DNA of 60,438 nucleotides, filler included, from Nemertoderma westbladi (Eukaryota; Animalia; Xenacoelomorpha): assembly GCA_032718475.1 (NCBI GenBank). It is 3 parts of 3 records of this genome, joined end to end, with 100 filler letters (N's around TTAATTAATTAA, not from the genome) between each part and the next. Parts side by side here need not be neighbours in the genome. Positions count along the whole stretch, not along the records: positions 29,038 to 51,559 come from JAUCBJ010001282.1; 2 more parts are not named here. One strand, written 5' to 3'. The number at the start of each line of letters is the position of its first letter. The first letter of the stretch is position 1. The notes beneath the pieces were generated by a model. It ran no database searches. It had not been told where the DNA came from and worked only from the letters and a program-made list of their open reading frames with translations. Position numbers and translations under genes: made by a program. Of the stretch, positions 12,901 through 51,659 are shown piece by piece.

Positions 12901-13260
12901 CTGCGCCGTATCGGACCAAACCATTTCCAACCAACGCGAAAGCCGTGACTTATGCCACCCCAACAGACACTTCTAAGGTTCTGACGCCTATCGGCACCAA
13001 ACAGCCACGGCAACAGTTGCCGGCAGATTTTGAGGGATGCCCATATTGTGAGCGGAACGGCAGAAACCACAGCGGACATAAATTACGTGGATGTCGCGCC
13101 TTTAGAGAGTTGGGAGTTGAAGAGAGAAGACTCCAAATTCGACCATTGGATTCTTGTTAGAGATGTACCATGCCTGGACACATCCGGAAGGATTGCCCAA
13201 GCGACGATACATGTCCTCTATGTGGACGTAACCATGACATGTTACTCCACACGAATAGTC
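9963..13260 (+). pseudogene. gag: BEL/Pao gag (coiled coil, DUF1759-like capsid region, CCHC knuckles) with stops and frameshifts
   Basis: PKFSGN..., EKFNYLLQDLSGEAKRL, RLFSIYG; Cys/His motifs CPYC..H..C and TCPLCGRNH near 13040-13250. Confidence 0.85.
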
Positions 13261-13490
13261 ATACTCCGACTAAACGTTTTCGATGAGAGCATCCAGATAA
13301 AGCGGCTAGATGCGACGCACTTTATAAGGAGCGCGCACCATGCGAAATCCGTACTTTCTATACCTGACTGTATGGATCAATCCGGATCATCGGACAAGGA
13401 CGAGGAGGAAGACGACACCTTTTACGTGCATGCGGGGGAGGAACAACCATCCATAACACTCCTCACACAGAACCAATTGAAAGGGTTTGC

Positions 13491-16400
13491 GTGATTCCTA
13501 TAAAGATTACCGGAACACGAGGGAGCAAGCGTATATACGCTATCCTAGACTCTGCGTCATCGCATAGTTACGTCGACGAACAAGTAGCCAACGTAGTGAC
13601 TGACATGAGTAAAGGTAAGACTGCTCTGTATACTGTAAGCAGCATGTATGGTAAGAGAGCGATTCCTGTGACGAGAGTTAAATTAACTTTAGATACCCTT
13701 CTTTCCAAAGTGGAACACAGCAAGGAGGAGCACTCATTACTTCCGATAAGAAATTTGACCTTTGCAGCTATGATGGACTTTAGTAACTTGCTCGGCCCTG
13801 TGCCAGAGCAATCACCGGAAGATTGTAAGTATTTCCGACACATTGGAATACCGGAATGTCCTGTTAATTATCGCTCAATCGCGATGTTGATTGGGACAGA
13901 CCAGTTTAACTTACATCAGGTATGGGAGACACGCCCATCTGTTATTACAGCGGGCAACCCCTACACATGTAGAACTCCCATAGGTTGGTATACTAGAGCA
14001 CCAGTGCGTTCCCTAGAAGTAAGTGACCAGGAGGACGACATTTTGAGTATGTGTAGTTTACTGACTACTACAATAGATAATTCTCCTTCACATTCCTGTG
14101 GTCCAATTGTACAGACTGTACTACGACAGACTTGCGTCTCTACCACTGATGTAACTGATCTGGACACGACCACACGGACCTCTGACTTAGAGCTACTTGC
14201 AGCGACACAGGTTGTATTGACTACTGAAGACCAAAGGGTTGTTGCTGTGGATGACTCGATGAACGAGGGTTTTGGAAGGCTTGCGAGCCTACCAATAAAT
14301 CCAAAGGTCATTGACCCCACCCACCAGGCTTCGACACTGGTCGTTGATCTTGGAAGGCTTGCGAGCCTACCAACAGATCAAAAGAACTACGTTTCCATGC
14401 CGACTAGTGACACCGGGAGGCTTGCGAGCCTACCAGACACATTGACACTAGCCACCGCAGCGGACAAAGACATAAACGAGGACTATGGCGCAGTGCAAGC
14501 AGCGCTTGTCCAACTGCTAAATGAACGGACCATTAAATGGTTAGAACAGGACTCAGCAGAACCCGGTAGTTATGAGACCGCTATGTCAGAACCGGAAAAA
14601 CGGTCATTAAATATTATGAGAGATACCATTCGCCAGACCGCGAATGGCCACTACGAAGTTGGCATGTTGTGGCGCCATGGACAACTTAAGCTCATTAACA
14701 ACTACCCGCTTGCTTTGAGGCGACTCAAATCAATAAGGCAGTGATTGTTGCGTGATGAGACGGCCCATATGCAATACAATGCGCAACTTCAGACGTATCT
14801 CCAAAAGGGATATGCCATTAGGATGTTAAATCCCGAGGTAACCACAGATCAAACATATTACCTGCCACACCATTTTGTTCGACACCCGGACAAACCTGGC
14901 AAGGTGTGTGTAGTCAACGACTGCGCCGCGCTTTACCAAGGGATGTCTATGAACAGCGAACTGATGAACGGGCCGAATATGAATAATTACCTCATAGGAG
15001 TCCTAATGCATTTTAGACAACGCAAAGTGGCTTTCACCTGTGATGTAGAGGCCATGTTTCACCAGGTTAAGGCTTTGGAGCGGGACAGGGACAGTTTGAG
15101 GTTTCTTTGGTACCCAGACGGAAACTTAGAACTTCCGCCAGAAACTTACCAAATGCAGGTAAGAGTCTTCGGGGCCAGGGATAGCCCTAACTGCACCATG
15201 TACGCATTAAAGCAAACAGCATTGGACAGACGAGACCAATTTGACCCCGAAGTAGCTCGGACAGTAGAACGAGACTTCTATGTGGATGATGGCCTCAAGT
15301 GTTGTGACACTCTGGAGCGTGCTACGACCGTAGCGCATCAACTCCAAGATTGTCTCGCCGAGGGCGGATTTCGCCTCAAGAAGTTCGCTTCCAACGAACC
15401 CGAACTAGTAAACTCATTTGACCCGACGGATCACAGTGGAGGTGACTTGGACTTAGACCTAGAACCTCTACCTACGACCAAGGTATTAGGACTTAGTTGG
15501 GACCCGAACACCGATAACTTTAGGGTGCGTTTAAGGTCCAACGGACAGATTAGACCTCTCACTAAGAGGACTTGCTTATCGATCATGAGTCGATTGTATG
15601 ACCCACTGTGTTGCATTAGTCCAGTGATCCTACACGCCAGGATCATACTCCGCAGCATTTGGCAAGCCAGACTGGAATGGGATGATCCCGTCCCAGAAAA
15701 GTTAGCTGATCAACGGAGGGACTGGGAAGCCCAACTGACGTTCTTACAAGACTATACCATACCGAGGGTATACTTTCCTTTGCAGACCACCTTTCCTGCC
15801 GACTTGGAGCTTCACAGCTTCAGATACGCTAGTAAGGATGGACTGGGGGTTAGTTACCTTATACCTTAGACGACAAGTGACATCTGACAGCTACAATGTG
15901 TCTCTCGTTACTTCTAGGGCTAGAACAATGCCATTGAAGAATATGACTGTACCTCGTGGAGAGCTGCAAGCCGGGACGATATCCACCGATATTGTCAGTT
16001 TAGTTCAATGCGAGCTGGAGGCTAACTTGAAGGTCACGTATTGGACTGATGCGATGTTGGTACTTTGGTACATAAACAACAAAACATTTAAGTTCAAGAC
16101 TTTCGTAGCCAACAGATGGGCTGAAATATTGGACCGGTCGCTCAAACAAGATTGGCGTCACTGTCCAGGGAAACTGAACCCAGCTGACATCGCGTCATGA
16201 GGGATGCTATCTATTGACTTTTGTAAACCGGACAATAAATCCTTTTGGTTTAGAAGACCTGATTTCCTACAACGACCATCGGACAAATGGCCACCGTTAT
16301 TTGACGCGACAACTAACACCATACCGGAGGGTGCCGAGATAAAAATCGACACTGTTATTATACTCCAAAGCGAAAGCCAATGCCAAGGCAAGGTCAAGAG

Positions 16401-18800
16401 GAAACAAGGACGGATGAAATCTGATGACCTGGACGTTAGACCTGACATTACGCCAGACGTCTCACCAGACACTTGACCAGACGTTACTACGAATCTTTCA
16501 CTGGAAGTACCGTGGGAGATTTCACCAGACGTTTCGCCGGATTGTTCACCAGATGTCTCACCAGATTATTCGCCAGAAGCGACACCAGATTGTTTTCCGG
16601 AATATTCGCTAGATTGTTTTATGGAACTCTCGACAGATTGTCTACCGGACGTCTTGCCAGACTTTCCACCAGACATCTCAACAAACTGTCCACTTGACTT
16701 TGGACCAGACATTCTGACAGAAGCTACGCCAGACTTTCTTTGGGACAGATGACAGGACATTTCGCTGGAAGTTCCGCACTATGTCTCACCAGATGTCTCA
16801 CCAGACTGTTTGCCGGACGCCACACCAGACTGTCTACTAGACTTTCCACTAGACCCATTGGAAAGTAACGACGTGTGCTATAAGGACGCAATGAATCCAT
16901 TGGAGCGGACTAGTACACACCCACTAGGTATTAACAACTTACCGAATTTGACTTCCTTGGACAACGAAGGTGTGGGCACAGCGATCACACTCCACTCAAG
17001 GAAAATACTTGACTTACCGTCTACAGGTAAATGTGGGACTAAGGTTAGAAAGCTTACGAGCTCACAGGAACACACTAGTACTGTAGAGTTGAAACCATTA
17101 CTGCCAGTCAATTCACTGAGTGCGGACGGTAAAGGTAAGACCGTGGAGATTAAATTACTTCACGACTCAGACAAACCTATTGTACAAAGGGAGACACTCA
17201 CTGGAAGGCCCATGGGCCTACCAAGTCCGAACAAGTACCCACACTTTGACTATACCTTACCTGATGACGTCACTAACACTTACGTTGACAGGATAGTTAA
17301 CCTAACTAGATCATGGACTGACGCGTGCCGCAAGTTAGCATGGCTCAAACTTTTGGGACAATATGCCAAAGGCAAACGCAACTTTCCTAGAAGACTTACC
17401 TTGGAGGAAGTTGGTCTTTGTGAAGTTGATATTATTAAACATTATCAATTGCGATATTTCGCACGAGAGTTCACAGCGATCAATCAGGGTAAACAGATCA
17501 AGTCTTCACCAATCTTGAGTTGGAGTCCGATATTCTATAGGGGCTTACTTTGTCACAAGTCCAGACTCCAAAACATTGACTTCGCACTAGACTTTAGGTA
17601 TCCTATCATCATACCACAACACCATGAGTTACAGCGCGCTATGATACTGGTCACACATGTACGACTCAAACACGTAGGTAGCCATCACTGTCTATCACAC
17701 TTACGCTCGAGGTTTGTACTGATTAGGCCTAGCAAGGCATTGAGTTTGGTAACACGGAACTGTATGATTTGTAAGAAGGTGCACGTGAGGCTGAGGATAG
17801 GATACCAAGAAATTAGTGAACTACCACTAGCAAGATTACAGGCTTTTAGACCCCCTTTCACTGAGACAGGGATAGACTGTTTTGGACCCATAATCGCGAA
17901 ATGCGGGAGGGTACAGGTAAAACGCTGGGGATTGATCTTCTCTTGCATGGCCAGCAGAGCTGTCCATATTGAGCGTGAGACAGATTTAACCACCAACGTC
18001 TTTATCCTAGCCTTACGGCGATTTATCGCTAGATGTGGATTGGTCAAATCCATTTATTGCGACCAAGGAACTAACTTTGTGGGTGCACGGAATGAAATCA
18101 CCATAGCCTTAAAGAAGTTGGACCAAAACCAGATTTCCGATGAACTACGTCCTCACCTTATTGTCTGGAGCCTTAACACTTCTGACAGTCCGTGGAGAGG
18201 CGGCGTTTGGGTAAGACTGATTGGGTCAATTAAGACGGCTATGGCGAAAGTAATACCGATGCAACGCATCTTGACAGATGACCAACTGACGATGTTGTTA
18301 ATAGAAATTGAAGCGGTTTTGAATACTAGACCAATCGCTTTGATCCCAGACAACAAAGACTCATAGTTTGCCTTGACACCAGCGCACCTACTTATGCAGG
18401 CGCCGACGACATTGTTGCCCACTTCGGTACCTGTCGATGGCGACGGATACAGCAACTAAAGCTTGGAAAATCACTCAGCTGTTAGCCAACAAATTCTGGG
18501 AAATATGGCAGAAGCACTATTTGCCCTCTATTTCGGCCGGACCTCTTGGTATCCTGTGTTAATACCCGATGTTTGAGACGCGGTGACCACGTTTTATTGG
18601 CTGGAACGAATCTGAAAAGACGGTTTTGGCTGACTGGAGTCATTTTGACCACGCACCCTACATCTGGTGTAGTAAGGACAGTTACTATACGGACTATTGA
18701 CGGACGTACCGTAGATAGGCCTGTACAACATCTCGTGCTCCTTGAGGAGACTAGAAACGAGACAGGAGACTACAAATCTCCACCCAATCTTAGTAAATAG
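13491..18800 (+). pseudogene. pol: BEL/Pao pol: aspartic protease, RT, RNase H region, integrase, C-terminal DUF5641-like; disrupted
   Basis: AILDSASSHSY (protease); YYLPHHFV, DVEAMFHQV, FYVDDG (RT); LYDPL, TVPRGEL, YWTDA, WRHCPGKLNPAD; H..H..CMIC, GIDCFGP, YCDQGTNF (integrase); RTVDRPVQHL. Confidence 0.93.
16420..16860 (+). repeat. Degenerate 12-bp tandem repeat (CCAGAC-based, encodes PDxx) between RNase H and integrase
   Basis: Recurrent CCAGAC/CCGGAC at about 12-nt period; translation PDITPDVSPDT...PDATPDC. Confidence 0.7.
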
Positions 18801-19543: not shown

Positions 19544-22500
19544 ATGGCGGAGAAGATTTACAAGGAGTGACGTCAGGGATTTACGCAGCAGCAGGAGCAC
19601 CAGGAACCATTTAATCGTTATGGAGCCAACCAAACTTTAACGTGTTTGGAGTGGAGAGTATGGCTAGGAGTACAGCCAAGCTTGCTAAATCCAAGGCGGA
19701 CCCGAATGTTACGCGACAGCGGTTGGACGCTTATAACAAAAGAGCGGAGGAGCTACGCACGGAGTTCAATGCGTTGTACTCCTATGATGTGTTATGCGAC
19801 GCTAGTGACATTTGTGAGGATCCAGACATGGAGATACGCCGATTATATCACACGCTGCAATATTTGACGGCGAGTGAACCCTTGCCTGCAGCTAGGGACG
19901 AATTCGATGGAATGCATCTTTATAGATGCGCTCGAGGAGTGGATCCAGAGACCAAGGATGCGTTCTCCATTTATAAACTGTTCTATAAATGTGGAGGATG
20001 TATGCGTGAGCAAGACAATGCGATTCCTATGCGCTTGAACTCGGAGAACCCCGAGTTGATATTAGCACGATGTTCATACCACCAAAGTCTGCGTTACCAA
20101 GAAGGCGGATACCCTTTGACGAATCCATACCATTCGTTTAAGATGAGTGGACCAAATACAGGCGAAATTGTTATTTATGAACCCAAATTAGTCGAATCAG
20201 ACGTCTATAGTATGATAGTGGACGAGTCTAATAAGTCGACACAAGAGAAATGGGAAGCTTTGAGCCTCTATAGGGCGTACAAAGCGTACGAGAAAGGCGA
20301 GATCGAGGAGTTCGGCGGAAGGCTCGCAAGCCTACCATTTTATTGGATATCCTACGATCAAACTGAACCTAAGGAGATGACACCCGAACTCTTCGATAGT
20401 ATCACCTTTGCTCAGCGTTTGTCGCAGAGACTAAAGATACCTCATGTCGAGATGATGCGAGAACCTCAGCCCCATCCTAAAGCGGTAGTACCAGTCGCGA
20501 GACCAACCAGCTTTCCTATTAGTATACCAACCCGAGAGGAGACAACTTACGAGATTCCCATAGTTGAACACCCAGAGATCATTTCGAACCTGGATTTCCT
20601 CCCATCGGTTACGTTTGGTGATGTGTTAGAGGCAGCGGAGTTGCGTAGAACAATAGTTCAGAAAATCGTACGCAACGTGCCTCCACATATTACAGACTTT
20701 AAGGAAGTGGATCGCGCGGGGACGGATATCGCTCCTTATATCTTGCGAGGATATCTAGCGAAAACGATTCGATTATGGATCGGAGTCGGCACATTCGAAA
20801 CCGACACCGACATTGCGATCAATTGGAAGGGGAAACCTATTAGTTTCGATGACGAAAAGTCCATAGGGAGAATTTTGAACCCTACTGACGATTTACTCGA
20901 CGATTGGGACGCGACGAGTCGATCTCTGCAGGAGAACGGTTATATGTTTTATGATAATGAAGGAGGAAGCCATCAGCAGAGCCTCACTTCAAAGACCATA
21001 CAGATTCGAGCACCTGACGGAGTGCTACACGTCTTCAGCCGACAGAGGAGCGATAGAAAGATGCCTATGCCGGAAGGAACGACGCAAAGACATGCGATGA
21101 TAAAACAGATAATTAAATCCATGGACCTGGCTTGTAGCATAGAAGCTAGGATGTTGCCAAAGGCCGTGCGTGACGTTATACTTGATAAGAGTATCGTCAA
21201 GATCGGATCCGGTGTACGGGAGGACCTTATTAGCGATTTTGCGGGAATGCCCGAGGAGGATCGATTGCCTACGCCTTACATGGATACTAGACCATTGTTG
21301 CTTTGGGCTATCGAGCAAGGATATTTCAGGGAGTATAACACGCTAAAAACTGGAACGGGTTATATCTCATATCTTATGTTCAGTTGGGACTATAAAGAGA
21401 GTAAGAGGAGCAAATACACGGATGTATATGGTGAGGGAGATACCCCTGGCGTAAACGAGTTTGAGTCACAGTTGAAGTGGGAGGTTGCGTGTATTGGGCG
21501 ATTACCTCACCTCCACGAATAATCTTGCAATACTATTTGGCGATTGAATCTTCGGTGAACGTATGCTTCATCGCCGATGTAGTGTCTAGGACTCTAAAGC
21601 GACATCCATTATGTCTCGGTGAAGGATATACCATTTACGACGGAGGAAGGATGCATACTGATGTATTCCGCCGATTTCTCCAACCCTTTTATAACACTGA
21701 TGCGCACTGCGAAGTTTTCACCCGAGCAGGACTTAGCATTTTTAGGGACGTTTATCTCACTCACGCAGGAAGCCTAGTCGACAGACCGTCGATGTTGACG
21801 TTAATACCCTACGACAGGGAACGCCACGCGGAGTTCAAAGGCCCGGAAGGATCCTGGAAGGCTCGCTTGCCTACCGCCCATCATGACGATGAGGATCCGA
21901 CCGAGTCCGCGTTAATAGACGAGCCGTTGCGGCAACTTATAGAAATAGAGGAGAACCTTCCGAGGAAGATGCGAACCAAGATACGTGAATTAGAGAAAAC
22001 GACGCCATGGTTTGTGTACAACCTACGGAGACGAACGTACCGACTGACCCGGATGATGAGAATTATCACATGGACGGTAGCGCTCGCCCCATCGGAGATC
22101 TCATCTATGAGCGAGTTTGGTATCCTGCCAACACCATTTGTGGTAGATGCGGGGCTACTGGCCATCACGCAAAGAAATGTGGAGCGAAACACATATTTCT
22201 ACCAGATTTAGTATGCAACTGGTATGGGGATCAACGTTCACACACTTTCTACACCTGTTGGAGTTTCGTGGCTCAGTGCACATATTGCAAATTAAAGGTC
22301 ATAGGGCATCCGAGTGCCAACTTAGGGACGTTCCCTATGAGCATAAGTCAGTTAAGATTATTCGACAGCTATTCGACCATTGGGAGAATCTAGCAGACAA
22401 ACATGTGTCGATGCAGCGACGCTGTTTCCCCATGAGAGCGCATTTGGGATTTTGGGCCGTAAACCCTCTCATTATGTCGAAGGAAGGATACGTGTCAGCT

Positions 22501-22818
22501 ATGCCTCAATACGATGAACTTTTAGAGGTGCTAGATATATTGCCGTTGGATAGCGGTTTCAAGGTTGTTAGGGACTACTTCCTACAGGTACACCCTGACA
22601 ATAAGAACACATGGAGTTTTCAGACTGTGGTGAACAAGATTACCGCCGGAGAGTTCGATAAATTGCGAGTCGAACAGCGGAATCGAGGAGTCTGGCATTC
22701 GATAGCTTGGGCATACCGGAGCGCATTTTATCACAAACGCGTAACCTCATGTATCTTAGATGAGGTGGACGTTTTGCGTGAGACTGGCTTCAAAGCCACG
22801 CCGTTAGCCAAAAGGTAA
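19544..22818 (+). pseudogene. Family A accessory ORF3: N-terminal unknown region, DEDDy 3'-5' exonuclease-like domain, 3 CCHC zinc knuckles, conserved C-terminal tail; frameshifted
   Basis: GYMFYDNEG (ExoI), LPKAVRDVILDKSIVKIGSGVREDL (ExoII), YMDTR, QYYLAIE (ExoIII-like); CGRCGATGHHAKKC, CNWY..H...C, CTYCKLKGHRASEC. Confidence 0.75.
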
Positions 22819-22990
22819 ATTTGTATTTTGTATATATGTATGATAGATCGTACCTGCAATATTAAGTATGCAATAGATAGACAGTGATTATTTTGTATTT
22901 TAGGCCCACTATTAGACCTAAGAGATATTTAGTCAATTGTTTGTATTTCGATTGGTGAAAACAATCTTACTTACTGTTTTCAAGGAGCGG

Positions 22991-23554
22991 TGATGGATTA
23001 TTTCACTGTCAAGTAGCATTTGTAGTGTAACGTAAAAACTTTCTAAAACCCGACGTATTTTGATTTAATTACAGTAATGTAATATGCCTACTCATATTGG
23101 TACACATTAATTCATAGATGACTCTATTGGCGCAGTGGTCAGATGGTTAAGGCGTTGGTTACATTACAGGTAGGTTACGAGTTCGAATCCCAGTCGGGAA
23201 ATTTGCATTTTTGGGCTATTTATTTTCGATCTGATTGATTAGATAAGCCAATGAGGTGCGTACAACATGTGGAATGATGAGTTGGGCCAATCATAGGGCA
23301 TATAACATCTTATTGCTCCAATGTGAGGCCATGAATGCTCTGGAAGGTTCTAGTGAATTCTATGTCATTGATTTGCTATATAAGGGCCGGTTTGCCTTCA
23401 GTTATCACCTCACTTATCACCATTATGTTATCTTAGATTATCACCCTTTAATCTGTTAACTTTGTTTCGAATTCTTTTGTAAATTACATAAATATACTGT
23501 AAACTTTGAACATGTATATTTTGTCTTGTCCACCATTGGGACAGCCAAACATTT
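22991..23554 (+). repeat. Family A LTR (3' boundary approximate)
   Basis: PPT at 22982-22990, TGATGG start, homologous to 4205-4904 but with one rather than two copies of the CCAAT-box unit. Confidence 0.75.
23122..23200 (+). ncRNA. tRNA-derived Pol III A/B-box cassette in the second family A LTR
   Basis: TGGCGCAGTGGTCAGATGGTTAAGGCG...GAGTTCGAATCCCAGTCGGGAA at the same LTR position as 4690-4768. Confidence 0.7.
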
Positions 23555-24754
23555 GGGAGATGGCTGCTTAAACCATTAGGCCGTCAGCAACGCAGGGAGA
23601 AGATGTCCAAAACACGCTAAGCGCCCGCATTAGATTAGCCCGCGCGCCCCCTTCGCCCCCCTTCGAAATACTCCACCTTGCCATGCAGCACCCGTTTCAG
23701 AGGAAGGTAAGACTTTGTTTGACGCCCTTGCCTGCCGTAAGACCTATAGATCAGGGTAAGCGTGACGCCATCCTGGGACGCCGCAAAATTTAGGATCAAA
23801 TAGCTCAGATTCAGGCAGAACCCGTACTAAAAATCCCCGGATTAACCTGTATTCCCTACAGGTGTGAACTATTGCTGTTCTTCAGTACGCAAGTACACTT
23901 TAGGTACAGACAGCATATGTTCCATAATTTAGTGATTTGTAGTACTGACAGTTTGGTACCGGTTCACTTTGTAGCTTATACATTAGTACCCACCCCCCTG
24001 CTTGAGCCCGCGTTACTTGATCAGGCAAGGAGTATTTCTGCTACTGGCACATCCTTGGCCTAGGGAGGTTTTATTAATATCCTACCTCGCCTTGCCACGT
24101 ACTGATAGGTATTGCTGCTAACCACCGCAGCAACAAAATTCTAGAATCAAATTTGTATACCAGATCAGCTAACGTACGGTAGCAATTACCAACTATTTCT
24201 TATCTTACAACCAGAATCTGGTATTTGTGCCGATCACGGGTGTAGTTACTAACACCGTAATTGCCCGGTTGAGTTGTGGATAGGAAGGAGAGAGCTTTGA
24301 TGTCATTTTGTAAGTATTAAGCCCTACAGAGCGCGACTAGCTTATTTTCGTAGCTAGCGCCGGTATTGTTTTGGTCAAAATTCACTAAAACCTAGTACAA
24401 TTGAGTACACCAAAATTGTTTTATTTGTAACACACCCACACACACACGCCCTAAAACATATATGCCCTTAGAGCTCTACTAGTTATTACCTACTTTAGAT
24501 TACTTCAGTAAGGATCTACGGCAGTTTTACTATTTGTAGTTTGTAAATTTAGGAGATATGATATTTAGTTTATGGCAAGAGGAGTATTTACTTATTAGAC
24601 TGTTTTTTCTGCCGACAGTATTGTTACTTTAGGCACGACCCCCTTTTGACTGATTTAGTACAGTCAGTATTGTTACGCTAGTCTGTTAATCCACTAGCTC
24701 GTATATAAACCATATAAATCACACTGCGGCAAGTTTACAGTATTTGGGTCCGTT

Positions 24755-24787
<33 letters not shown>

Positions 24788-25894
24788 GGTCCGTTAGTGA
24801 TAATTAGGATTCGCTGCGCGGGGATTGTTTCCTCGTGAGTTTGGTCTGTCACCGTAGACTGTACATCTGCCTCACCGGTTAGAGGACAGGTACCGGTATC
24901 CTGTTTTGTCTAGTTCGCCGGGCATTTGACTCGCCCACGTATTAGAATCTGTTCCTCGCCAGTAGTAGTTCGCGTATTTAGTATCTGTTTATTTAGACAT
25001 CCTGGACTGGGATTTATTGTCAGATACTGTACGAGCCCGTATACACTACTAGATTTTACAGTAAGATACATCATTACTAGGATCCAGTAAGCGGTATACT
25101 ACTGGACTTTTCAGTACTATTTTGTATTTTTTTGTACTTTTTTGTACAGATTCGTCGGACCCATTTTATATTATAAGTTTTAACGAAGTTGTTATTTCTG
25201 CTGCAAATTGCGCAGAGCAGCTAAGAAAACTTTATATATTTGTTTTAGATTTTTACTTTAGACTTCATTTTTACTTCACCAACCCACTCGTATTCGATAA
25301 AGGTAGGCCTACCAGGACTGGTTGATAGAATCCCAAAAGCAGTACTGCAGTTGGTGCTTGTACAGGTAGTTTCCTTGAAACAAAACCTCGGTTTATTCGA
25401 GGATTAAACGCGGAATTCCGCAACAACTCGAGCAAGGTGCTCGTTATTATAATGCTTGTAAACAGTGCAGTGTACTGATACAATGGGACTTCCATCATTA
25501 CCAGTACAGTCAGACTCTCCGATCTCGATTCTCTGCCACTTATTTCTATCTTGTCCATTATAGTAAATAATCCCTGTATCAGAATAATTGAGGTAATGTG
25601 TTTTATTTTAGTTTCCTTATCCAAAATGGCCAGATAATCATGTTTGTTTGAGCTAACCGCATCCAGCACCACTTGTCCAGTTCGGCGTGGTCTGATATTC
25701 TGTATAAAACGCACTCCAGATTCTCAATTGCAGAATTGGGTAATCGATTCGTTCTTTGCCTGTAGTAAGCGATTTATTAGGTCTGCTGTCTGTCTACTTG
25801 CGTTACTCATTGTATCAAACCACAATCATCAAGCGATGCACCGATCAGCCGAGGCGGTACTCTGTGGTGCAGAGCAGTATATAGGCCCTTACTG

Positions 25895-28937: not shown

Positions 28938-29037
28938 NNNNNNNNNNNNNNNNNNNNNNNNNNNNNNNNNNNNNNNNNNNNTTAATTAATTAANNNNNNN
29001 NNNNNNNNNNNNNNNNNNNNNNNNNNNNNNNNNNNNN
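28938..29037. other. Assembly gap (N-run with TTAATTAATTAA linker)
   Basis: 100-bp N block with a six-frame-stop linker. Confidence 0.98.
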
Positions 29038-31322: not shown

Positions 31323-32962
31323 TTAGACAGTTAGAGCCCAGCATGGACTCCCGTAGAGGAGTACTGGAACTACTGCTGCTCTAAATAATCGGACCTTAAG
31401 TTTCCGATTAATTCTAGGTGACTTCCAAATCCTGGAAAGCCTATTCAAGGCTGCCCATGCCTTTCCCTTACGTATTCGAAGGTCCTCGCCTGACTTCCGG
31501 ATCCATGATCCCAGGTAACAGAAGTCGCCCACATGCTCAAGCATACCATCCTTTGAGCTTATGCTCATCCGATCAGAGACTTGCTGAGGACTTTCAAAGT
31601 TAACTGTCAGAATTTTGGTCTTTCTGGTGTTAATAAAAAGACCAACACTAGAAGCAGCATGTTCTAATGAGCTGAGGAGCCGTTGGGCTCCCTCTAATGA
31701 TTCTGAGAGTACTCCTAAGTCATCAGCAAAGTCTAGATTAGTTAGGTACTTGGCAGGATTTCCTCGACTTCTGGAGCCAGTAGGTGGAGTTATCATCACC
31801 CCATCATCATTATGATGATCTAAGGACATGCGTAGAACATAGTCAACCACAATAATGAACAAGAATGGTACAAGTGTGTCTCCTTGGAGGACGCCCCATA
31901 ACACTTCAAATGGTTCTGTGTCACCGTCAACAGTAGACACAACTGTTGTCGAACCATCGTATACTGATCTGATTGCTGCAATAATTTCATCAGGAATCCC
32001 ATATAATGAAAGTATGCTGAACATACGTGAGCGAGAGACTGAATCAAAGGCCTTGAAGAAGTCAACAAAGATAACAGCCAGATGCCTGTCTTTCTTTTTT
32101 GATAACTCTTCAATTATCCTTCTAAGTGCCAAAATGGGCTCCATGGTCCCACGACCTTTACGGAACCCATTCTGATTTCCACGTAGCAGTCTCTCAATGG
32201 GATCCCTGATGCGATTTAATAGAATTCTATTGTATAGTTTTGCAGCAATCGAGATCAATGAGATTCCCCGAAAAGAACCATAGAGTGTTAGGTTGCCCTT
32301 CTTGGGAACTGGCACCAACTTATTTGTTTTCATTTCTTGTGGGACTCTTGTTGTACGGTACATGTCTACTATGATGGGATAGATGAGCTTTAAACACTCA
32401 GGTATTTTAAAGACCTCAGGGGGAACACCATCTACTCCACTGGCACGATTGGTCTTAATGCTCTTTGCAGCAGCCTTCACTTCTGCAAAGGAGATATTGC
32501 CAATGGGAATATCTGGGAGTACAGACTCAGACACCTTTACTTCTATAAAGTTATCAGGCAATACCCTGTCATTATTGAGGAGCTTTTCAAAGTGGGCTTT
32601 CCAACCATTGAGGCGATCGGCTGGTGATTCAGCCTTAACCTTGGTGGTTGGTTGGCTTTTTCGCCCAGTAAGCAGATTGATCGATTTCCATGCCTGGGAT
32701 GATTGCCTGCTGTCGTCAGCATCATTTATGGCATCAACCTGTTGGTTTATTAGCTCCTGTAGATTAACAGAGTACTGCCTGTTCAGGGACCTAGATGCAG
32801 CCTTAACTGCATTCTTGGCCGCTGTAGTCTGTTGGAGTCGGGACTCTTTCTGCGCCTTATGAAGGTCATTTCGGCACTTCTGAATTTTGTTGTCAGTCCA
32901 GGGGGCCCTTTTCCTGTTTCGAAGGTATACAGGAACTGTTTCTGCAGCTGCTAAATTAACTG
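31323..32962 (-). mobile_element. RTE-clade LINE RT fragment, truncated at both ends
   Basis: PKKGNL...FRGISL, NQNGFRKGR, FVDFFKAFDSV, GVLQGDTLVPFLF, DFADD, DFCYLGS, VLLYGS. Confidence 0.9.
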
Positions 32963-33629
32963 CGGTATGGAGATGGAGAGGAGCGGACGGTGAGATGTCC
33001 GGAGGACAAACCGGAGGAGTGTCCAGTGGAGTGTCAGGAGGACAATAGTCCGGAGGAGTGTCCGGAGGAGTGTTCAGAGGAGTGTCCGGAAGAGATGCCG
33101 GTCCGGTTGAGAGGCATACCGACAAAGGGGAGGTCGAGTAAGAAGACAAGATGGAAAGGGAGAGGATGTGAGAGGATTAGACCAGGGGCAGAGAAGCCCA
33201 TGAGTAAACATAATAAAGCAGTCAGGAAAGTAGGAGGCGTGTTGCATACGCACGTGGGACTGACAGAGTGCGAGGGGGCATTATACCGCCAAACGACAAG
33301 TTGAAGGGTGGCACTTTGCCGCCAAGGGACGACCACGAGGAGATCAGAGACATAGGGAGTAGGCAGCACTTTCCAAATTTAAGGACAGGAGAAAAGGGAA
33401 GGTCAATTCCAAGAGAGTTGGAATTGACAAGGAGAGTGGAGCGGAGAATCAGAGGTCCTATTAGAGGGAGCACCATAGACGAGTAGAGTTTAGTCATCCA
33501 AGTTTTGACTGAGGGGGGTGGGATTGAGGGCGAGACGCCCTTCTCACACATAAAATAAAATATAAAAAAAATAATAAATAAAGAAAGAGTAAGTAGGCAG
33601 ATGGAAGTTAGTAAGTGTTAGGCAGATAG

Positions 33630-34205
33630 TAGGAGTTAGTAGTTAGAAGGTACGTAGTACCGCTAGTTAGTTAGTAAGAGTTAGTAGTTAGAAGTTATGT
33701 AGTACCGCTAGTTAGTTAGTAAGAGTTAGTAGTTAGAAGGTACTTAGTACCGCTAGTTAGTTAGTAAGAGTTAGTAGTTAGAAGGTACGTAGTACCGCTA
33801 GTTAGTTAGTAAGAGTTAGTAGTTAGAAGGTACGTAGTACTGCTAGTTAGTTAGTAAGAGTTAGTAGTTAGAAGGTACATAGTACCGCTAGTTAGTTAGT
33901 TGGAGAGAGTTAGAGTTAGTACGAGGGTACGTAGTACCGGTTAGTTAGCTGGAGAGAGTTAGAGTTAGTAAGAGGGTACGTAGTACAGGTTAGTTAGTTA
34001 GAGAAAGTTAGAGTTAGTAAGAGGGTACGTAGTACCGGTTAGTTAGTTGGAGAGAGTTAGAGTTAGTAAGAGGGTACGTAAGTACCGGTTAGTTAGTTAG
34101 TGGAGTTAGAGTTAGTAAGAGGGTACGTAGTACCGGTTGGTAGAAGTTAGTTAGAAGTTAGTAAGAGGGTACGTAGTACCGGATAGTAAGAGTTAGTGGT
34201 AGAAG
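33630..34205 (+). repeat. 45-47-bp GTTAG-rich minisatellite inside the family B element
   Basis: Unit GTTAGTTAGTAAGAGTTAGTAGTTAGAAGGTACGTAGTACCGCTA with period 45, followed by slightly longer variants. Confidence 0.9.
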
Positions 34206-34675: not shown

Positions 34676-37237
34676 ATGGCGGGGAAACTGATCAGGAAGA
34701 GAAAGGCGGAGTCAGGAGGAAAGGAGATACTACTCATCAAGAGGCATCCGGAAGAGAAGACGAGGGGATACTATGAGCGGTTAGAGAGAGGTCACGCAGC
34801 GCAAGCGCTACAGGACCATTTCAGGGAGGTGCACGAACAGCGGCTGGTTGGGACCTACGGGACGCCGTCGCTGGACAACGCGATCTTCGAGCATTTCCAC
34901 TACGTCGTGAAAGGAGATGAGGCGAAGTTCGGGATTCCGAAGTACGCGAGAGAGCCACCGAGGAAAGATTGGAAGAGGTTCGTAGAGTCCGTCAGCAGAG
35001 AAGGGTACATGGTCCTAGACGATGAGGCGACCGTGGAAGACGATGAGGGTTCGAGGAGAGGATCGGCGGGGTCGGCCAGAACCATACTCCTACATTTGGC
35101 CGTGCCAAATGGAGATATATTCCTATTCGATCTAGGAACGTATGGAAAGAAGGACGGGCCGAAGTTGAACCGGTTGCCGAAGGCGGTGCAAACCTTAGTG
35201 AGAGAGAAGTCAACGACGAAAGTGGGATTGGCGATTAGCGACGACGCGGAGAGAATCATCGGTCCGGACACCCCCAACCTTCTGGATATGCAGACGGTCT
35301 ATATGGCTATGACAGCACCAGACAGGTTGAGACTAGTGGAGAACACAGGACATTGCGGGGCGGTGGCAATGGGCCAGCTAATGGGGCTCGTGTGTCTCAA
35401 ACCGATGGACTGGAGTAAGTTCAGAGGGGAGTACGGAGCGGACTTGGCGAACTCGCTGAAGTGGGGAGCGAGGCCAGGGAGACAAGAGGTGTATCAATTC
35501 CGGAGAGGAGCGATAAATGTATATCAGAAGCGATATATCCTACAGGAGGACTGAATAATGATGGGTTTGCTTAACCTATTCATGACCGTGGTTATCGAGA
35601 GGGAACCAACGGCATTCCTATTATCGGGATCACCCCTAAGCTACAGAAGAGCCTTTAAGACGGCTTTCGAGGGTCTGGTAGACCACCCGGGGCTGAAGGG
35701 CGAGTCGGTATACTATAACATCCGACATCTGGTAGACAGGGAGGTGGATACGCCGTATCAGAGGTGGGAGCAGTTAGAGACGGATAGACGAGAGAAGAAG
35801 CGATTGGAAGAAATCGCTAGACAGGAGAGGAGAGAAGCAGAGGAAAGGGAGGAGGAAGCTAGGGCACAGAGCTACGGCTTCAAGGAACAGGCGGCCTTAG
35901 ACGAACTTCGTTGGACCTCATCAGGGAGTTCGGGGGAGTCTCTAGGATGAGAATTAGGATGGACGGTGGGATCACCGAAACAGTCGACGTCGGGATTGCA
36001 GACGACGCCCATACCAGCAGGCGCCGAGGGCGATCGGCCGCTAAGGAGGCTAGGGGAGCTAGAAGGATGGAAAGTTATGGGCGAGAGCCAAGGCGGGAAG
36101 GGACACAGTGGGTCCACCGGGATACCGGGGTTGGAGCCGCTGCCAGAGGAGGACGAGGATGACGGCGAGTTCGGAGAGATGCCGCCCATCGGGAGGATCG
36201 GCCACTCGGACACGGACTGGGTTGGCGGGAGAGTGGTGACGGCCAGCGGGGTGAGGGCCTTCTGGGATAGACCCGGCAAGCGGGCCTGGGTGCATGAGGA
36301 GCCGGTGATGGATTTCGCGGGGAGCACTATCAGGTTGGGCGAGCAACCGGGGACGGCACCACGGATAGTATTCGGGGAGACGATGCCTGGGAGGGGCGAG
36401 GAGATCGACGTAGACAGGGACGCTAACGTCCGGAAGTTCGCTTACCAGCGACTCCACAGACCGCAGAGATCGCTTGGGATGAAAGACGACGTGGGGCGGG
36501 AGACATTGGTGCTCGGCTGTGACTACTGTGGGAGACAGACCCACCAGGAAAGGAGCTGTTTGTACCGGTTCCAGAATGGGACTAGTTGTCTCTACTGCCG
36601 CAAGTCGAGCCACAGGATGGGGGCGTGTCCACGGTTGCACAACCAATGTTCGAAGTGTAACTTTCGGGGACAATACGGACGCCAGTGCGACTGGAGGGAC
36701 GACGAAGAGAAGTTTAGGGTCTTCGAGGAGTGGGCTGACGTCGGAGCCATGACTCGGCAACGCATGAAGGCCCAGGAGTTCCGGTGGGGCTTCTTTAACA
36801 TCAATCAGGAGGCCCACATGGAGATTATCAAACGGAGGCTTCCGTTTACCTACCAGGAAGTGGCGACGGCGGCGTCGTATGCCGGAGTGATAAATACGCA
36901 GAGGTATTTGGACAGGTGGATGCCACAGAACAGAGGAGAGTTCAGGGATTTCTTGGCGGAGCATGTGCCGCGGGCGATGAAAATGATCCTATGGGACGCC
37001 ACCAGGGGGAGACATCAGGGCCATTCGGAGGGGCCACCCGCGAAGCGATACCGGGAGCTAATAACACCAGCACCCAAGGAGACGACGACTGGGATTAGTA
37101 AAGAGGTGACGGCGAGGGTCAGGAGCCTGAAAGCAGACAAGACCAAAGGAGCGGCAGTGACCAGGAAACGACCAAGGGAGGAGGATGATAGAGGGAAAGA
37201 GTTGAGGTGGTTCCCAAAGGCAGGTGGAACGGACTAA
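34676..37237 (+). pseudogene. Family B accessory ORF: DEDDy exonuclease-like domain, 3 CCHC zinc knuckles and WGF tail; interrupted by stops
   Basis: GYMVLDDEA, LHLAVPNGDIFLFD, LPKAVQTLVREKSTTKVGLAISDD, LLDMQ, QKRYILQED; CDYCGRQTHQERSC, CLYCRKSSHRMGAC, CSKCNFRGQYGRQC; FEEWADVG...WGFF. Confidence 0.8.
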
Positions 37238-37934
37238 GACACCCATGTGATATGCCTGGAAGGCACCACGCGAGACGTGCGAACTCCTAAGTACGAATTC
37301 AAGTTATTTAAATAATTGAAAAGTGCAATTAGTATGTACGTGCGTAGTAATCATTATTAGTTTAGCAAGTAAATACAATCAAAGTAAGTACTATAGTCGT
37401 ATAACCTTTTCTCAATTAGCTACTGGGACTGGGGACCAATAGACTATAATACTACCACGGACGAGACACTCGACGACATCACACTTCTTGAGTGCGACGG
37501 TACGGGAGGGGGTGAAACTCGTCGGGAGTGAGTGGGAGAGATAGGGGTTGAGTTGTAGTGTGGATAGACTGCGGGTGCAATTCAAGTGTGGGGGGGGGGG
37601 GGGAGGAATAAGAGGCTGAGTGAGGGACAGGGAAGTCCGGGAGTTAGAGCGGGAGTGAGGAGAAGTAGAGGAGAGTCAGGGTGAGAACAGAGTGGAGTTG
37701 GAGTGGCGAAAGTGCTGGGGAAACAAAAGTCGTGTGAGAGGAGCGCACGATCGGCCCGACACGGGACGCCAGGTAAACAGGGTAGCGATATCATACCCAT
37801 AGGGGGCGGTCTGGAAAGCCGGCTCCGAGGAAAATAGTTCCACCCCACACTCGATACTAGGTCGAGATCCAGCGGAATTGTCGCGCACTAGAGGTGGATG
37901 CTATCTTCTCACCGGGAAGATAGCATGGGGGGAG

Positions 37935-38506
37935 TGTTAGCGTATTCAATTCCGCTAGCCAGGCCCACACAGAGTTGGTTTTAAGCAATATTGGGAGCAC
38001 GAGGTTGGTTACCAATCAACCTCGTGTCACCCCAATAGGCGGGGACAATAGGCCCCAAGGGAACACACACAGCGGGGGTCAGAGGTTACACCTCCGGGAG
38101 GGAGAGAGAGACAGCAGCGGGGGGAAGTACTCCCAGGGAGATGGGAGTGTGACAAGTGAGTTATTAGCCAATGGGGGGGAGGCATCGGCTGAGTAGTGTA
38201 ATGCGGCCAACCGGTGCAATATATTACCAGTAACCGTGTTATTCATTCACTCATTAGCTAGCCAGTTCAGTTAGGGTAGGACGGCAACTTTTATTACCAT
38301 TCAGCCGTTTATTCATTCATGTTGTCTGTATACTGCAATTACTAACTGCATTCGCTATAACTGTGCTTATACTTTATACCATTTTATATTATATACATAC
38401 CGAGCGATTAACAACAGGAAATCTAATAAACTCTTTTCACACGGCGGGACGCGTAAATAAATCTAACCACCGGATAAACCGGGATCCTCTATCTGATCCC
38501 GTCACA
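37935..38506 (+). repeat. Family B 3' LTR
   Basis: TGTTAGCG...GATCCCGTCACA with AATAAA near 38425; homologous to 41291-41861 and 48074-48680. Confidence 0.88.
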
Positions 38507-41290: not shown

Positions 41291-41861
41291 TGTGACGGGA
41301 TCAGGGGATCCTGACTGGTTTGTTTTCGTTACGCGTCGCCACTCGTTGTGAGAATATAGTTAGTTGTTGCTGTTGTTCTGATATTGTTAATGAATAAGAT
41401 ATAATATAGTAGCAAGAAATATATATGTAAGTACGATAAATAACGTTGTACCGGTAGTGGTGGTGACGGCGGTGACGGTACGAAAATGTCACCTAACTGC
41501 ACTAATTAATGACTGAGTAAACTGAACAACCGACCGGTAGCAGGACAATATATATGTATGATTAGTACACTACTACGGCCTTCGTCCAGTGGATACTCTC
41601 CCCCCTGCTCTCATTGGCTGTTATCCCACTTCTCGCCTCCACCTCTGTGGGAGTGCTCCCCCCCCTCGCTGCTGTTACTTTCCCTCTCCCAAGAGGTTTG
41701 ACCTATAACCTCTTTTGTGTGGCTCTTTTGGGCCGTATGTTGTGCCCGTTATTGGGGGTGATACGAGGTTGATTGTAATCAACCTTGTACTCCCCAATAT
41801 TGCTTAAAACAACACTTCCCAACTTTATGGGGTCGGTGGGGCGGAATTGAATCCGCTCACA
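41291..41861 (-). repeat. Family B 3' LTR (minus copy)
   Basis: TGTGAGCGGATTCAATTCCGC...GATCCCGTCACA on the minus strand, with a poly-G PPT at 41862-41877. Confidence 0.88.
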
Positions 41862-42784
41862 CTCCCCCCCCCCCCCATGCTATCTTCCCGGTGAGAAGAT
41901 AGCATCAACCTCTAAGTGCACTTCAATTCCGCTGGAAACCCGACCTACTATCGGGTGTGGGGCGGAGTTCTCTTACTTTGGAGTCGGCTTTCCAGGCCGC
42001 TCCCTATGGGTATGATGTTACTACCCTCTCTTGGTGCAACCGCAACCTATGTTGCACCAAGTCACCTGGCGTCTCGGTTTGAGACAATTGTGGATTTCTC
42101 TCACACAATTTTAAAAAGCTCTCTCACTCAAACTCTAACCTCTCACTCTAACTCTCCTCTAACTCCACTCTAACTCCACTCTTACTCTCTCCCCACACCT
42201 GAATCACACTCGCTGTACTCTCCACCACTCCCAAAGGCGCTAATCTTATGCTACTACACTGTGCTATCATTCTATCTACTTACTACTTACTTGCTACTTA
42301 CTCCCTAATTCTACTAACTCTCTAACTCTAACTAGCTCTCTTAACTCTACTAACTCCTAACTTTACTAACTCTTCTAAGTCTACTAACTCTAACTAGTTC
42401 TCTAACTAGCTACGTGGCGCTTTCGGTGCCCACAACCACTCTGCTACTACCTCTATCTACGTGGCGCTTTTGGTGCCCACAACCACTCTGCTTACTACTC
42501 TCTACGTGGCGCTTGTGGTGCCCTTACCCGCCGACTTCTAATACTCCTATTGACTCCTAACTTTCTTACTATCTTACTTCTACTAACTTTCTGACTTTCT
42601 ACTTACTATCTAGCTTCTACTAACTATCTGACTACTAACTTCTTGCTATCTTCTACTAACTTTCATACTTCTAACTTTCTACTTACTATCTTCTACTTAT
42701 TTATTATTTTAATTATTTTATTTTATTTTATTTAAATAATTATTTGTGTGTGGGAAGGGCGTCTCGCCCTCATTCCCACCCCCC

Positions 42785-45002
42785 TCAGTCCAAAATATTG
42801 GACGAATAAACTTCGTCTAAACTTCGAGGGCGATTCTTCCAACAGGCACTCTCCCACTGCTCCCCTTGTAGGTCCTGTAGGATTCGCCACACTCTCCTCG
42901 CCAATTCCAACTCACCAGGAATTGGTTCTCCCTCTTCTGCCACCCTAAAATCGGGTCTCTCCACCGCCTTCTTAACTTCCTGATCTCCTGGCAGCAAAAT
43001 GCCACCCTTCATCTGGTCTCCCGGCGGCAGAATGGAAAGAAACTGAAAGAACAGACAAAACAGAACAAACAATAGTAATCCTATCCCTTTCCATCTTGTC
43101 TTCTTACTCGACTTCCCCATTGTCGGTATGCCTCTCAACCAGACCGGCGTTTCTTCTGGACACTCCTCTGGACACTCCTTCCGACACTCCTCCGGACACT
43201 CCTCCGGACACTCCTCCGGACACTCCTCCGGACACTCCTCCGGACACTCCTCCGGACACTCCTCCGGACTGTTGTCCTCCAGACATCTCGCCGTCCGCTC
43301 CTCCGGGTTGTCCTCCGGACATCTCGCCGTCCTCTCCTCTCCATCCCCATACCGATACTTGCTGGGACCCTTGTTCCATCCCATTGCCTCTAAGTCTTCC
43401 GCGTCAAATCCATTCTCCTCCACCCACTCTCCTACTGTTACCTCCCCGTCTGGCTCATCTACCATCTCCGGTATCTTCTCTTCGTCCTCTGCGTCTACGG
43501 TGCCTGGTAACATGCACCCTGATGTCTCCGTCACCCTGGATGGAATCTTGGTTTTAACAGGGCCGCTAAGCGTCCATCCGAACGGTGTGAGGATCGCCAT
43601 CAGATCCCGCTGTCTGTCTTCACCAAAGACTGTCTGCATTCTCTCGTGGGCCGTCGGGCAGTCCATTCCTACTATAATGGATACCTTCCTCATCTCCAGG
43701 ACCTCGTCCTTACTTGAGACGGTTGTTACCGCCATCCTATTCGGCCTCGTCTTTAGCCCTATCTCTTTGGCCACCCAATTCTCCACCAGCGTGAAGGCTG
43801 CTCCACTGTTGACCACCATTAATATCGTTACTGATCGACCGCCCTTTCCTGATATCTTCACTGGTACTACCCCGAGTAGTACTTTCCTCTTTTGTCTTGC
43901 TACTGTCGTGCTTGTAGCCATGGTTTGGCCTCCAGTCTCATCCTCTCCTATTGCTGTTTCTCTACACTCTCCGGATCTGTGTCCTTCTACCACACAACGA
44001 TGACATAGTCCGTTTGCGTCTGTGTAGGCTATACGATCTTGTTTGGGCAACGCTTGCCAGTGCTTACAACTCATGGTCTTATGGGTTCCATCCCGATGTA
44101 ATTGACATTCGAATCCTGCATTATAGCGTTCCCTGTATAGTCCTTCACGTATCACAGATTCACTTCACTGATTTAGTGTTTTGGTTATCTAGACTCGGCC
44201 TACTGGGTATGTTGGGATTATGTTTATTTGTGTTGTTATTTTCTTTCTGTCCCTACCATGGTGTGGCCCTACTCCCAGCTAACTGTGGGCTTGTAGCCCC
44301 CTGTGTGGCCGCGTGTGGTAGCGACTGTCTTACTCTCGGGAATGGATCTGCAGGATTGTGTTCGGGTTTAGGCCTGTTGTATTCGGTCTTTGGCGCCTTC
44401 CCCAAACTATCCTCACTATAGACTGGGTCTGTAATCAACTCGGCTTCGTAGTTGAGGAAGTTTGACATTTCCTCTAGCCCTGGCTCCGCACCTTTCTTCT
44501 CCCGAGTGGAGAAGGCGATCTTCCTCCACTTGCTCCGTAACCAGATCGGCAGTGCCTGCGCTATCGTGGTGATGTTATTAGATGCGTTGAGTTCGTATGG
44601 CGCATCTAGCGTCTTCAACAGGATTAGCGCATTCCCGACTTTGTTCGCAAACATCTTTATGCTAACGGGGTTATCCTGTAGGCAACCCGATGTTATACCC
44701 CTCAGGGTTTGCCGGATGATCTTGGCTGGGTGTCCATATTCCCTGTCTAGCGCCCGCCATGCTTTCGTGAAGCCACCCTCGATGCCCTGGTACTGCCTCA
44801 CGATGTCGTATGCTGGGCCTCCTGTATACACCTGTAGATATTATAGGCACTCCGTCTGCGTCAAGTTCTTACTTAATATCTCGTTGCTGTACATGCGCCG
44901 AAATTGCAGGTATTCTTCCGGCCTACTTCCGTCGAATTTAAATGGCTCGACTGGTGGTAACTCGATCCTGGTCTTTAGTGCATCGATTAGTGTCGCCATT
45001 CC
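42785..45002 (-). pseudogene. gag: Family B gag plus degenerate aspartic protease and acidic PEEC-repeat tail
   Basis: ORFs 44841-45000, 44253-44831 and 42785-44155 carry BEL gag/protease motifs. The catalytic D is replaced by N (NSG). Confidence 0.8.
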
Positions 45003-47689: not shown

Positions 47690-48815
47690 AAACGCCGAAA
47701 AAACAAGTTTGAAATTTCTAACTAATTTTATGTGAATCCCATCTAATTATGAACACCAAAAAACCGTTCTAAATAAAAAATATAGATGTTACAAATCATA
47801 TTTCATGAAATTAAATTTTCACAAAACGTCTCAAAAAAGTGCAAAAAGTAGGGTTAAATAAAGGTACTATAACTCAAAAACTTCCCGATATTTTTAAAAA
47901 CCGTTTTCACTATTAGGCAGACAACATATTTTTTCACATATTTTTCATATTCTTTCATACGCCGAAAAAAACAAGTTTGAAATTTCTAGCTAATTTTATG
48001 TGAATCCCATCTAATTATGAACACCGAAAAACCGTTCTAAATAAAAAATATAGATGTTACAAATCATATGTCATGTGACGGGATCAAGGGATCCCGACCG
48101 GATAGATTCACTACGCGTCACCGTTGTTTTAGTGGTGGTGATGGAAGTTTGGCCGAGGCCGATATGGAAAAATAGTGGGAGTTTGGTGTTATCTTCTGAC
48201 GTCGTCTGATAGTAAATAATATGTATGTGTAATAGCACAGTAACAGAATAACCGGTATGAGTAATTAGTCTGAATGTTGATGATGTTTTGGTGACGGTGA
48301 GAAAATGTCACCAGTCTGTACTAGAAACCAATAACTGAACTGGACCGCTAACAACATAATAATATATATGTGATTACTTCTACACTGCTGTGGCCTCTAA
48401 CCTAGTGGATGCTTCCCTCGCCCCTATTGGCTAATAACCCACTTCGCGCCTCTCCACTCTCTGGGAGTATTTCCCCCCTGCTGTTGGCCCCTGCTGGTCG
48501 TTTCCCCTCCCGAGGTGATTTGACCTCTAACCTCGCTTTGTGTGGCTTTGGGGTTTGTGTTCTCCCGGTGTTGGTTGCGATACGAGATTGGTTATTGCCA
48601 ATCTCGTATCTCCAACATTGCTGAAAAGGTGCCACTTCCCATTTTATGAGGGTAATGCGGCGGAATTGAATCCGCTCACATTTCATGAAATTAAATTTTC
48701 AAAAAACGTCTCAAAAAGTGCAAAAAGTAGGGTTAAATAATGGTACTATAACTCAAAAACTTCCCGATATTTTTAAAAACCGTTTTCACTATTAGGCAGA
48801 CAACATATTTTTACG
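47690..48815. repeat. ~270-bp tandem duplication of an AT-rich repeat, with the second copy split by a solo LTR
   Basis: 47693-47935 repeats at 47960-48073 plus 48681-48812. Confidence 0.8.
48074..48680 (-). mobile_element. Family B solo LTR with 5-bp TSD
   Basis: TGTGACGGGATC...ATCCGCTCACA flanked by TGTCA / TTTCA. The uninterrupted site AAATCATATTTCATGAAA is present in the neighbouring repeat copy. Confidence 0.9.
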
Positions 48816-51559: not shown

Positions 51560-51659
51560 NNNNNNNNNNNNNNNNNNNNNNNNNNNNNNNNNNNNNNNNN
51601 NNNTTAATTAATTAANNNNNNNNNNNNNNNNNNNNNNNNNNNNNNNNNNNNNNNNNNNN
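51560..51659. other. Assembly gap (N-run with linker)
   Basis: 100-bp N block. Confidence 0.98.

Follow-up and report, generated by a model that had tools for sequence, protein, structure and literature searches.

A predicted DEDDy exonuclease-fold gene with zinc knuckles in the env position of BEL/Pao retrotransposons

A conserved and stably inherited second gene (hereinafter ORF2), found in natural active-site and dead-site versions, was identified in the env position of BEL/Pao elements. In its product, a predicted DEDDy 3'-5' exonuclease-fold domain is combined with CCHC-type zinc knuckles and, C-terminal to these, a small domain predicted to be helical. Two divergent members, belonging to element families A and B, were found in a 60,438-nucleotide stretch of DNA from Nemertoderma westbladi (GCA_032718475.1), composed of three parts joined end to end (hereinafter referred to as the window). 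We tentatively favour the possibility that ORF2 proteins are RNA-binding helpers, which grip the element's own transcript and, in versions with an intact active site, trim the 3' ends of RNA. To our knowledge, BEL/Pao elements are among the least studied LTR groups.

The family B ORF2 (34676..37237, plus strand; 853 codons from the ATG at 34676 to the stop at 37237) is interrupted by in-frame stops at codons 293 (35552-35554) and 425 (35948-35950), and this copy is dead. The exonuclease-fold domain (34898..35605) is followed by a predicted long charged helix (35708..35917) and a disordered linker extending to about 36505, neither of which is conserved in the family. Three CCHC-type zinc knuckles (36518..36688), the third substituted at its His position in the window copy, precede the post-knuckle helical domain (36701..37006), which has the family pattern FE-x2-A-x2-G-x2-T-x2-R...WGF...Y. 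Downstream on the same strand are a polypurine tract (PPT; 37927..37934), also present in a minus-strand copy of the family, and a 572-base 3' LTR (TGT...ACA; 37935..38506). Upstream, the spacer contains 45- and 49-base tandem repeats (33574..34200, plus) and is preceded by the decayed 3' end of a gag-protease frame (PEEC repeats and tail; 32963..33512, plus), which is homologous to the corresponding end in the minus-strand copy and contains no RT, RNase H or integrase.

The minus-strand copy (41291..44985) comprises gag (DUF1759), protease, the same tail, the PPT and an LTR (41861-41291), and lacks both the pol core and ORF2. Its Pfam matches to DUF1759 (E 2e-4) and Asp_protease_2 (E 4e-4) fell short of the Pfam cut-off, and a profile built from ten full BEL polyproteins matched its gag, knuckle and protease parts (E 2e-4 to 6e-4). 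Its LTR was identical to the 3' LTR of the plus-strand copy at 397 of 512 aligned bases, and the ends (TG...CA) are common to all three B LTRs, including a solo LTR (48074..48680, minus). Since neither B copy matched the RT, RNase H or integrase parts of the polyprotein profile, which were matched by family A only, family B is a pol-less, non-autonomous BEL derivative within the window; its lineage would depend on an autonomous partner. The window contains no 5' end of this family. In host DNA runs, the depth over the B ORF2 far exceeded that of the right flank, and the gene is therefore part of a high-copy family. Contigs aligning to the B stretch numbered 15,921 and 7,808 in two runs and 103 in a third, with none covering the entire stretch.

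A full but decayed BEL/Pao element represents family A (7912-25116); it consists of a 5' LTR remnant (7912-8894), a decayed gag-pol (12210..18800, plus; DUF1759, RT, Peptidase_A17 and integrase), a frameshifted second gene (19615..22818, plus) and a 3' LTR of about 2.1 kb (22988..25116, plus). Its gag matched DUF1759 at E 1e-10, and RT, RNase H and integrase occur in the BEL/Pao order. The second gene includes an exonuclease region (about 20900-21560), knuckles (22136-22310) and a tail (22354-22614). All four acidic residues and the same motif set as in B were present in the exonuclease region, the last motif lying in the next frame. An earlier reading made from the sequence only had assigned three knuckles to both genes; these are present and are altered in B (third) and in A, where the second has lost one Cys and the third is split by a frameshift. 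The same architecture at the same position, as claimed there, was confirmed relative to the PPT and LTR, but family B has no pol core in the window.

The A gene also encodes a 400-residue N-terminal extension (19660-20850) with several Cys and His, for which no match was found among other ORF2 proteins (best E 0.79). The A LTR is longer than the ICTV range of 0.2-1.2 kb and contains a tRNA-like stretch near 23130-23195, not called by ARAGORN. The 5' LTR and gag start of a second A copy (1-4905, minus) face the first copy.

The motif pairs quoted for A and B in the sequence-only reading, which made no mention of the two in-frame stops in B, were all found in the window. The differing LTR and base composition of family B, and the retention of protein motifs without obvious DNA similarity, were likewise borne out: blastn detected no similarity between the second genes or between the LTRs (best E 1.0 and 1.8, respectively), and the B gene contains 36% G and 16% T against 26% G and 24% T in the A gene. 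Pairwise BLASTP aligned the exonuclease regions marginally (E 0.004, 27/117 identities), but the tails did not align. Two profiles were built from outside sequences with neither window protein included, one of the N-terminal domain (23 sequences) and one of the knuckles plus tail (46 sequences). The N-terminal profile matched B at E 1.3e-19 and A at 6.5e-14, the next best place in six frames being at E 10, and larger exonuclease profiles repeated the match (8.7e-24 for B and 7.2e-14 for A). The knuckle-plus-tail profile matched B at 2.4e-31 and A at 1.3e-4 and 0.039, with the A Gag knuckles at 0.51. Homology of A and B beyond chance is supported because profiles without either window protein match both exonuclease regions. 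The profile comparison was strong for the exonuclease but weak for the A tail, which alone gave E 0.098, and for the A knuckles, which alone gave 0.45; outside family B, each of these was still the top-scoring location in the window. An A-B pairing in exonuclease trees (support 80/27) was set aside as long branches meeting.

It is hardly credible that the A-B similarity is a matter of chance, due to generic CCHC motifs, or that it reflects a passively carried host fragment. The pairwise E value of only 0.004, the absence of Pfam matches for either window protein and the broken state of both window copies would fit such an origin. Against it, besides the outside-profile matches, 53 of 80 outside loci (described below) had an open frame of at least 300 codons upstream of the motif, and dN/dS was below 1; on these three grounds chance CCHC similarity was ruled out. 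The ORF2 knuckle profile also found no match among the Gag knuckles of 15 gag-protease parts (best E 0.59). An origin of the ORF2 knuckles as a duplicated BEL Gag nucleocapsid was rejected on the same result and because the third knuckle is CCHC, whereas the pattern CX2-4CX3HX4H is given for Gag in the available text of PMC554778.

According to the predicted model and a profile match, the N-terminal domain of B ORF2 has a DEDDy fold. The catalytic motif in B comprises D115 and E117 (ExoI), D190 (ExoII), and Y287 and E291 (ExoIII), with Glu replacing the last Asp of Y-x3-D. The model had a mean pLDDT of 58.7, with 80-90 in the domain cores. The leading Foldseek matches were Egalitarian, trypanosome RNase D and Nibbler (E 4e-6 to 2e-5), and a second structural aligner gave Nibbler (Z 14.0, rmsd 3.4 over 202 residues), NrnC-type proteins (Z 13-14, tied with Nibbler) and WRN (Z 13.0, rmsd 3.1 over 176), with RNase D, Rrp6 and Egalitarian near. 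At the sequence level, the best match of a 36-sequence exonuclease profile was human EXD2 (E 9.4e-10), and a language-model search with B returned a WRN-like exonuclease (0.95). A single-sequence PDB search with the B protein returned nothing. Of 51 homologs, one matched Pfam DNA_pol_A_exo1 slightly short of the cut-off (E 6e-5), and one of 36 domains matched it at 0.0018.

The tail was predicted to be a small helical bundle. When its fold was compared with 48,161 chains, the best Z was 4.7; Foldseek retrieved nothing at E 0.001, and a language-model search returned generic knuckle proteins only, with low recognition. The post-knuckle domain, described earlier as unrecognised, is conserved in the family and matches no solved fold, a result that does not prove a new fold. 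ORF2 represents a protein family missed by Pfam, together with a small domain lacking a known fold.

An exhaustive homolog search with the B protein retrieved 51 proteins with E values of at most 0.001, each matched via the knuckle region; 25 of them, of at least 470 residues, aligned over the N-terminal domain too. Neither the whole B protein nor the C-terminal alignment gave a match in word-indexed searches, and viral contigs gave no match for the ORF2 motif or the family A RT. A motif scan of metagenome contigs yielded 120 of an estimated 300 stretches, with flanks for 80 (loci numbered with the prefix L); it selects for intact knuckles, and most contigs came from a few assemblies. The C-terminal profile matched 78 of the 80 flanked loci. 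A BEL RT, RNase H or integrase lay on the same strand in 33 of 39 loci with at least 3.5 kb upstream, and same-strand BEL pol was found in 28 of 31 loci at 5 kb and 23 of 25 at 6.5 kb. Among the other six of the 39, L022 and L043 carry a BEL integrase tail, and no pol match was found in L005, L012, L052 and L074. Peptidase_A17 and DUF5641 exceeded the Pfam cut-off in L013, L037, L046 and L080. Typical elements have a single gag-pol frame of 2,000-2,400 codons followed by an ORF2 of 700-1,000 codons; pol and ORF2 are separated by a stop in all 38 loci with an integrase match, and all three frame offsets occur. The homologs are accordingly located after pol, towards the 3' end of BEL/Pao elements, and not in host genes. 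This bears out the earlier inference of an old accessory gene family shared across BEL lineages, and ORF2 as a host gene was rejected. L022 is a second LTR-bounded element, with gag, an integrase tail and ORF2 and without RT.

Two further observations were made on these loci. The ORF2 frames of L005, L015, L043 and L051 reach 1,300-1,600 codons and include sizeable additional regions without a Pfam match. L022 and window family B are two unrelated pol-deleted BEL derivatives retaining gag and ORF2 between LTRs.

Because ORF2 occupies the position of env (ICTV profile, PMC8742986), it could replace Env and aid exit of the element from the cell or entry into it, a formal possibility also raised for rotifer ORF3s in the available text of PMC5408684. 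This is highly improbable: no conserved membrane segment was detected, the 19-residue hydrophobicity peak exceeding 1.8 in 8 of 80 ORF2 proteins and reaching 1.37 in window B, and the folds are of nucleic-acid-binding types. ORF2 as Env was rejected on these grounds.

To compare inheritance, RT and ORF2 trees were analysed for 19 elements having both. Tree distances were correlated between RT and exonuclease (Spearman 0.89) and between RT and the knuckle/tail part (0.89; 0 of 2,000 permutations), and of 11 RT splits with support of at least 0.9, 8 and 9 recurred in the second-gene trees. The single supported conflict was among three close relatives. This agreement indicates that ORF2 was inherited with the element and not swapped; the module swapping considered earlier left little sign, and wholesale swapping was rejected.

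dN/dS was obtained from nine pairs (two trios, hence not independent). The values ranged from 0.10 to 0.52 in the exonuclease and from 0.11 to 0.42 in the knuckles plus tail (8 computable each), compared with 0.06-0.15 for RT (5 computable); they are probably upper limits because synonymous sites are near saturation. All computable values were thus at most 0.52, in line with the earlier suggestion of a selected gene family. ORF2 diverges faster than RT, and its synonymous divergence is below that of RT. Recent exchange, as an explanation of the latter, was rejected because biased third positions account for it. At fourfold-degenerate sites ORF2 was richer in G+C than RT in 19 of 19 elements (L002-L080), an excess that may be due to selection, either for strong expression or for a different RNA.

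Catalytic residues were compared in 65 rows, after seven near-duplicates and the partial piece of A were dropped. All four acidic residues were kept in 32 rows, three in 1, and two or fewer in 26, and 6 were gapped. On a 36-row tree, losses occurred at no fewer than three separate places, namely an 11-row clade (support 97/99), L008/L016 (100/99) and L001, with L015 as a long branch; positions in the divergent clade rest on alignment at 10-15% identity. In dead-site genes, dN/dS ranged from 0.22 to 0.52 over the nuclease and from 0.11 to 0.42 over the knuckle-tail part, which argues that something besides catalysis is kept. Half of the family retains the full active site over long distances, and catalysis therefore matters in those lineages. 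In the clade of L010, L044, L078 and L080, the ExoIII tyrosine column is histidine and the four acids are kept.

These losses bear on a role in DNA replication, in which ORF2 would trim cDNA at flaps or at mispaired 3' ends, with the knuckles serving as chaperones of strand transfer. Strict co-inheritance with RT would suit it, as would the EXD2 and WRN-like matches, but cDNA trimming is made less likely by the repeated loss of catalytic residues, two or more acids being absent in 26 of 59 scorable rows. ORF2 is moreover not fused to pol, and most described BEL elements replicate without such a gene (PMC8742986). We consider this role quite unlikely.

In the favoured RNA-binding reading, ORF2 would be expressed from an RNA that is either spliced or started internally, and its knuckles and nuclease groove would jointly bind the element RNA. 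The benefit would arise at the RNA stage, by stabilising or localising the RNA or handing it to Gag particles; nuclease activity would be optional, and proteins with an intact active site would trim the 3' ends of RNA. The predicted fold is closest to RNA-acting DEDDy proteins (Nibbler, with RNase D, Rrp6 and Egalitarian near), but WRN and polymerase proofreading domains lie within 1-2 Z, and the fold thus cannot separate RNA from DNA substrates. The minus-strand B copy lacks ORF2, which is therefore not needed in cis.

The main rival, which is compatible with RNA binding, is counter-silencing: ORF2 would degrade or sequester small RNAs or their precursors, or mimic DEDDy proteins of the piRNA pathway (Nibbler, Mut-7 and EXD1). 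Nibbler and EXD1 are among the best structural neighbours, but the Z-scores of piRNA factors tie with those of unrelated DEDDy enzymes. Inactive ORF2 versions could act as decoys, and pol-less elements (window B and L022) retain an ORF2 that would work in trans; the faster divergence of ORF2 than of RT and the very many B copies in host DNA runs also point this way. No sign of positive selection was seen in the tested pairs, and on balance we regard counter-silencing as rather unlikely. A broader scenario seems doubtful as a whole, in which a deep BEL/Pao lineage would imitate the small-RNA or RNA-transport machinery of the host by means of a DEDDy-knuckle protein whose helical domain is undescribed. 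It would counter piRNA silencing or route element RNA to the germ line, would have turned several times into a non-catalytic RNA binder, and would be kept by pol-less elements as a shared good.

Nibbler/Mut-7, EXD1, EXD2, the WRN exonuclease and Egalitarian share the fold (Z 12-14) and motif layout of ORF2, but are host genes with 10-17% identity and other accessory domains. EXD1 is catalytically inactive. The RNA-binding reading with an optional nuclease draws on three precedents. In T. brucei RNase D, as described in the available text of PMC7797062, a DEDDy exonuclease is likewise followed by CCHC knuckles, and both the binding and the cleavage of RNA are enhanced by the CCHC domain; unlike ORF2, it is a cellular protein whose four knuckles lie near the nuclease and, in that description, it has no long linker or tail domain. 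Its matches to the ORF2 exonuclease and knuckle profiles (E 0.015 and 0.005, respectively; 0.005-0.02 overall) are too weak to establish orthology. Egalitarian is described in the accessible part of a preprint (bioRxiv 10.1101/2025.08.03.668247) as an RNA-binding protein that can dispense with its catalytic residues in this role and as a carrier of I-factor RNA. CERV of C. elegans Cer1 indicates that the RNA of an element can be acted on by the product of a gene located here; Cer1 is a Gypsy-type element, and the available text mentions no exonuclease (PMC10309623).

DEDDy-type ORF3 genes occur in the bdelloid rotifer LTR retrotransposons Juno and Vesta and in Athena/Terminon elements, according to the available texts of PMC5408684 and PMC5718144. 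As described there (PMC5408684), ORF3 is, like ORF2, a separate extra gene after pol, encoding an RNase D-like DEDDy exonuclease with an intact motif and a putative function. Unlike ORF2, it belongs to other element lineages, was gained at least twice and is shared between element classes, whereas ORF2 follows the RT tree; no C-terminal triple knuckle or tail domain is described for it. The natural active-site and dead-site versions of ORF2 offer a ready test of the role of accessory nucleases in retroelements, a question also posed by the rotifer ORF3s.

In the available texts of PMC8742986 and PMC3118150, the only genes described for BEL/Pao elements (Belpaoviridae, Semotivirus) are gag, pol and, in some cases, env. 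Family A and the outside loci resemble such elements in Gag DUF1759, the protease-RT-RNase H-integrase order, Peptidase_A17, DUF5641, LTRs and the PPT, and differ in that the env position holds the nuclease-knuckle gene; family B in addition lacks the pol core. The word 'exonuclease' is absent from the available main texts, supplements excluded, of PMC3118150, PMC2774666, PMC554778 and PMC9094657, and the accessible part of PMC11662393 contained nothing relevant. A literature search, with subscription papers and Repbase outside its scope, found no report of a BEL/Pao exonuclease gene. An exonuclease domain was reportedly once noted in a nematode Cer element. The suggestion of an undescribed system needs qualifying, since an extra DEDDy gene as such has a precedent in rotifer LTR retrotransposons (PMC5408684), and ORF2 is accordingly not a system of a new kind.

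No Rfam matches or tRNA calls were obtained for the whole window. Identical N runs around TTAATTAATTAA at 28938-29037 and 51560-51659 are filler between parts. A 262-codon frame (27353-28141, minus) had a faint match to the KIAA0319 N-terminus (E 0.084) and is possibly a host exon. Two non-LTR retrotransposon RT fragments (29864-32950, minus) adjoin the 5' break of the plus-strand B copy. Penelope-like pieces with RT and long inverted repeats were found at 45003-46391, interrupting the gag of the minus-strand B copy, and at 55471-57108, the latter with GIY-YIG. The segment 39505-40707 is bounded by 228-base inverted repeats and is MITE-like, and satellite arrays with 10-base and 36-base units were located at 52800-53800 and 57937-60438.
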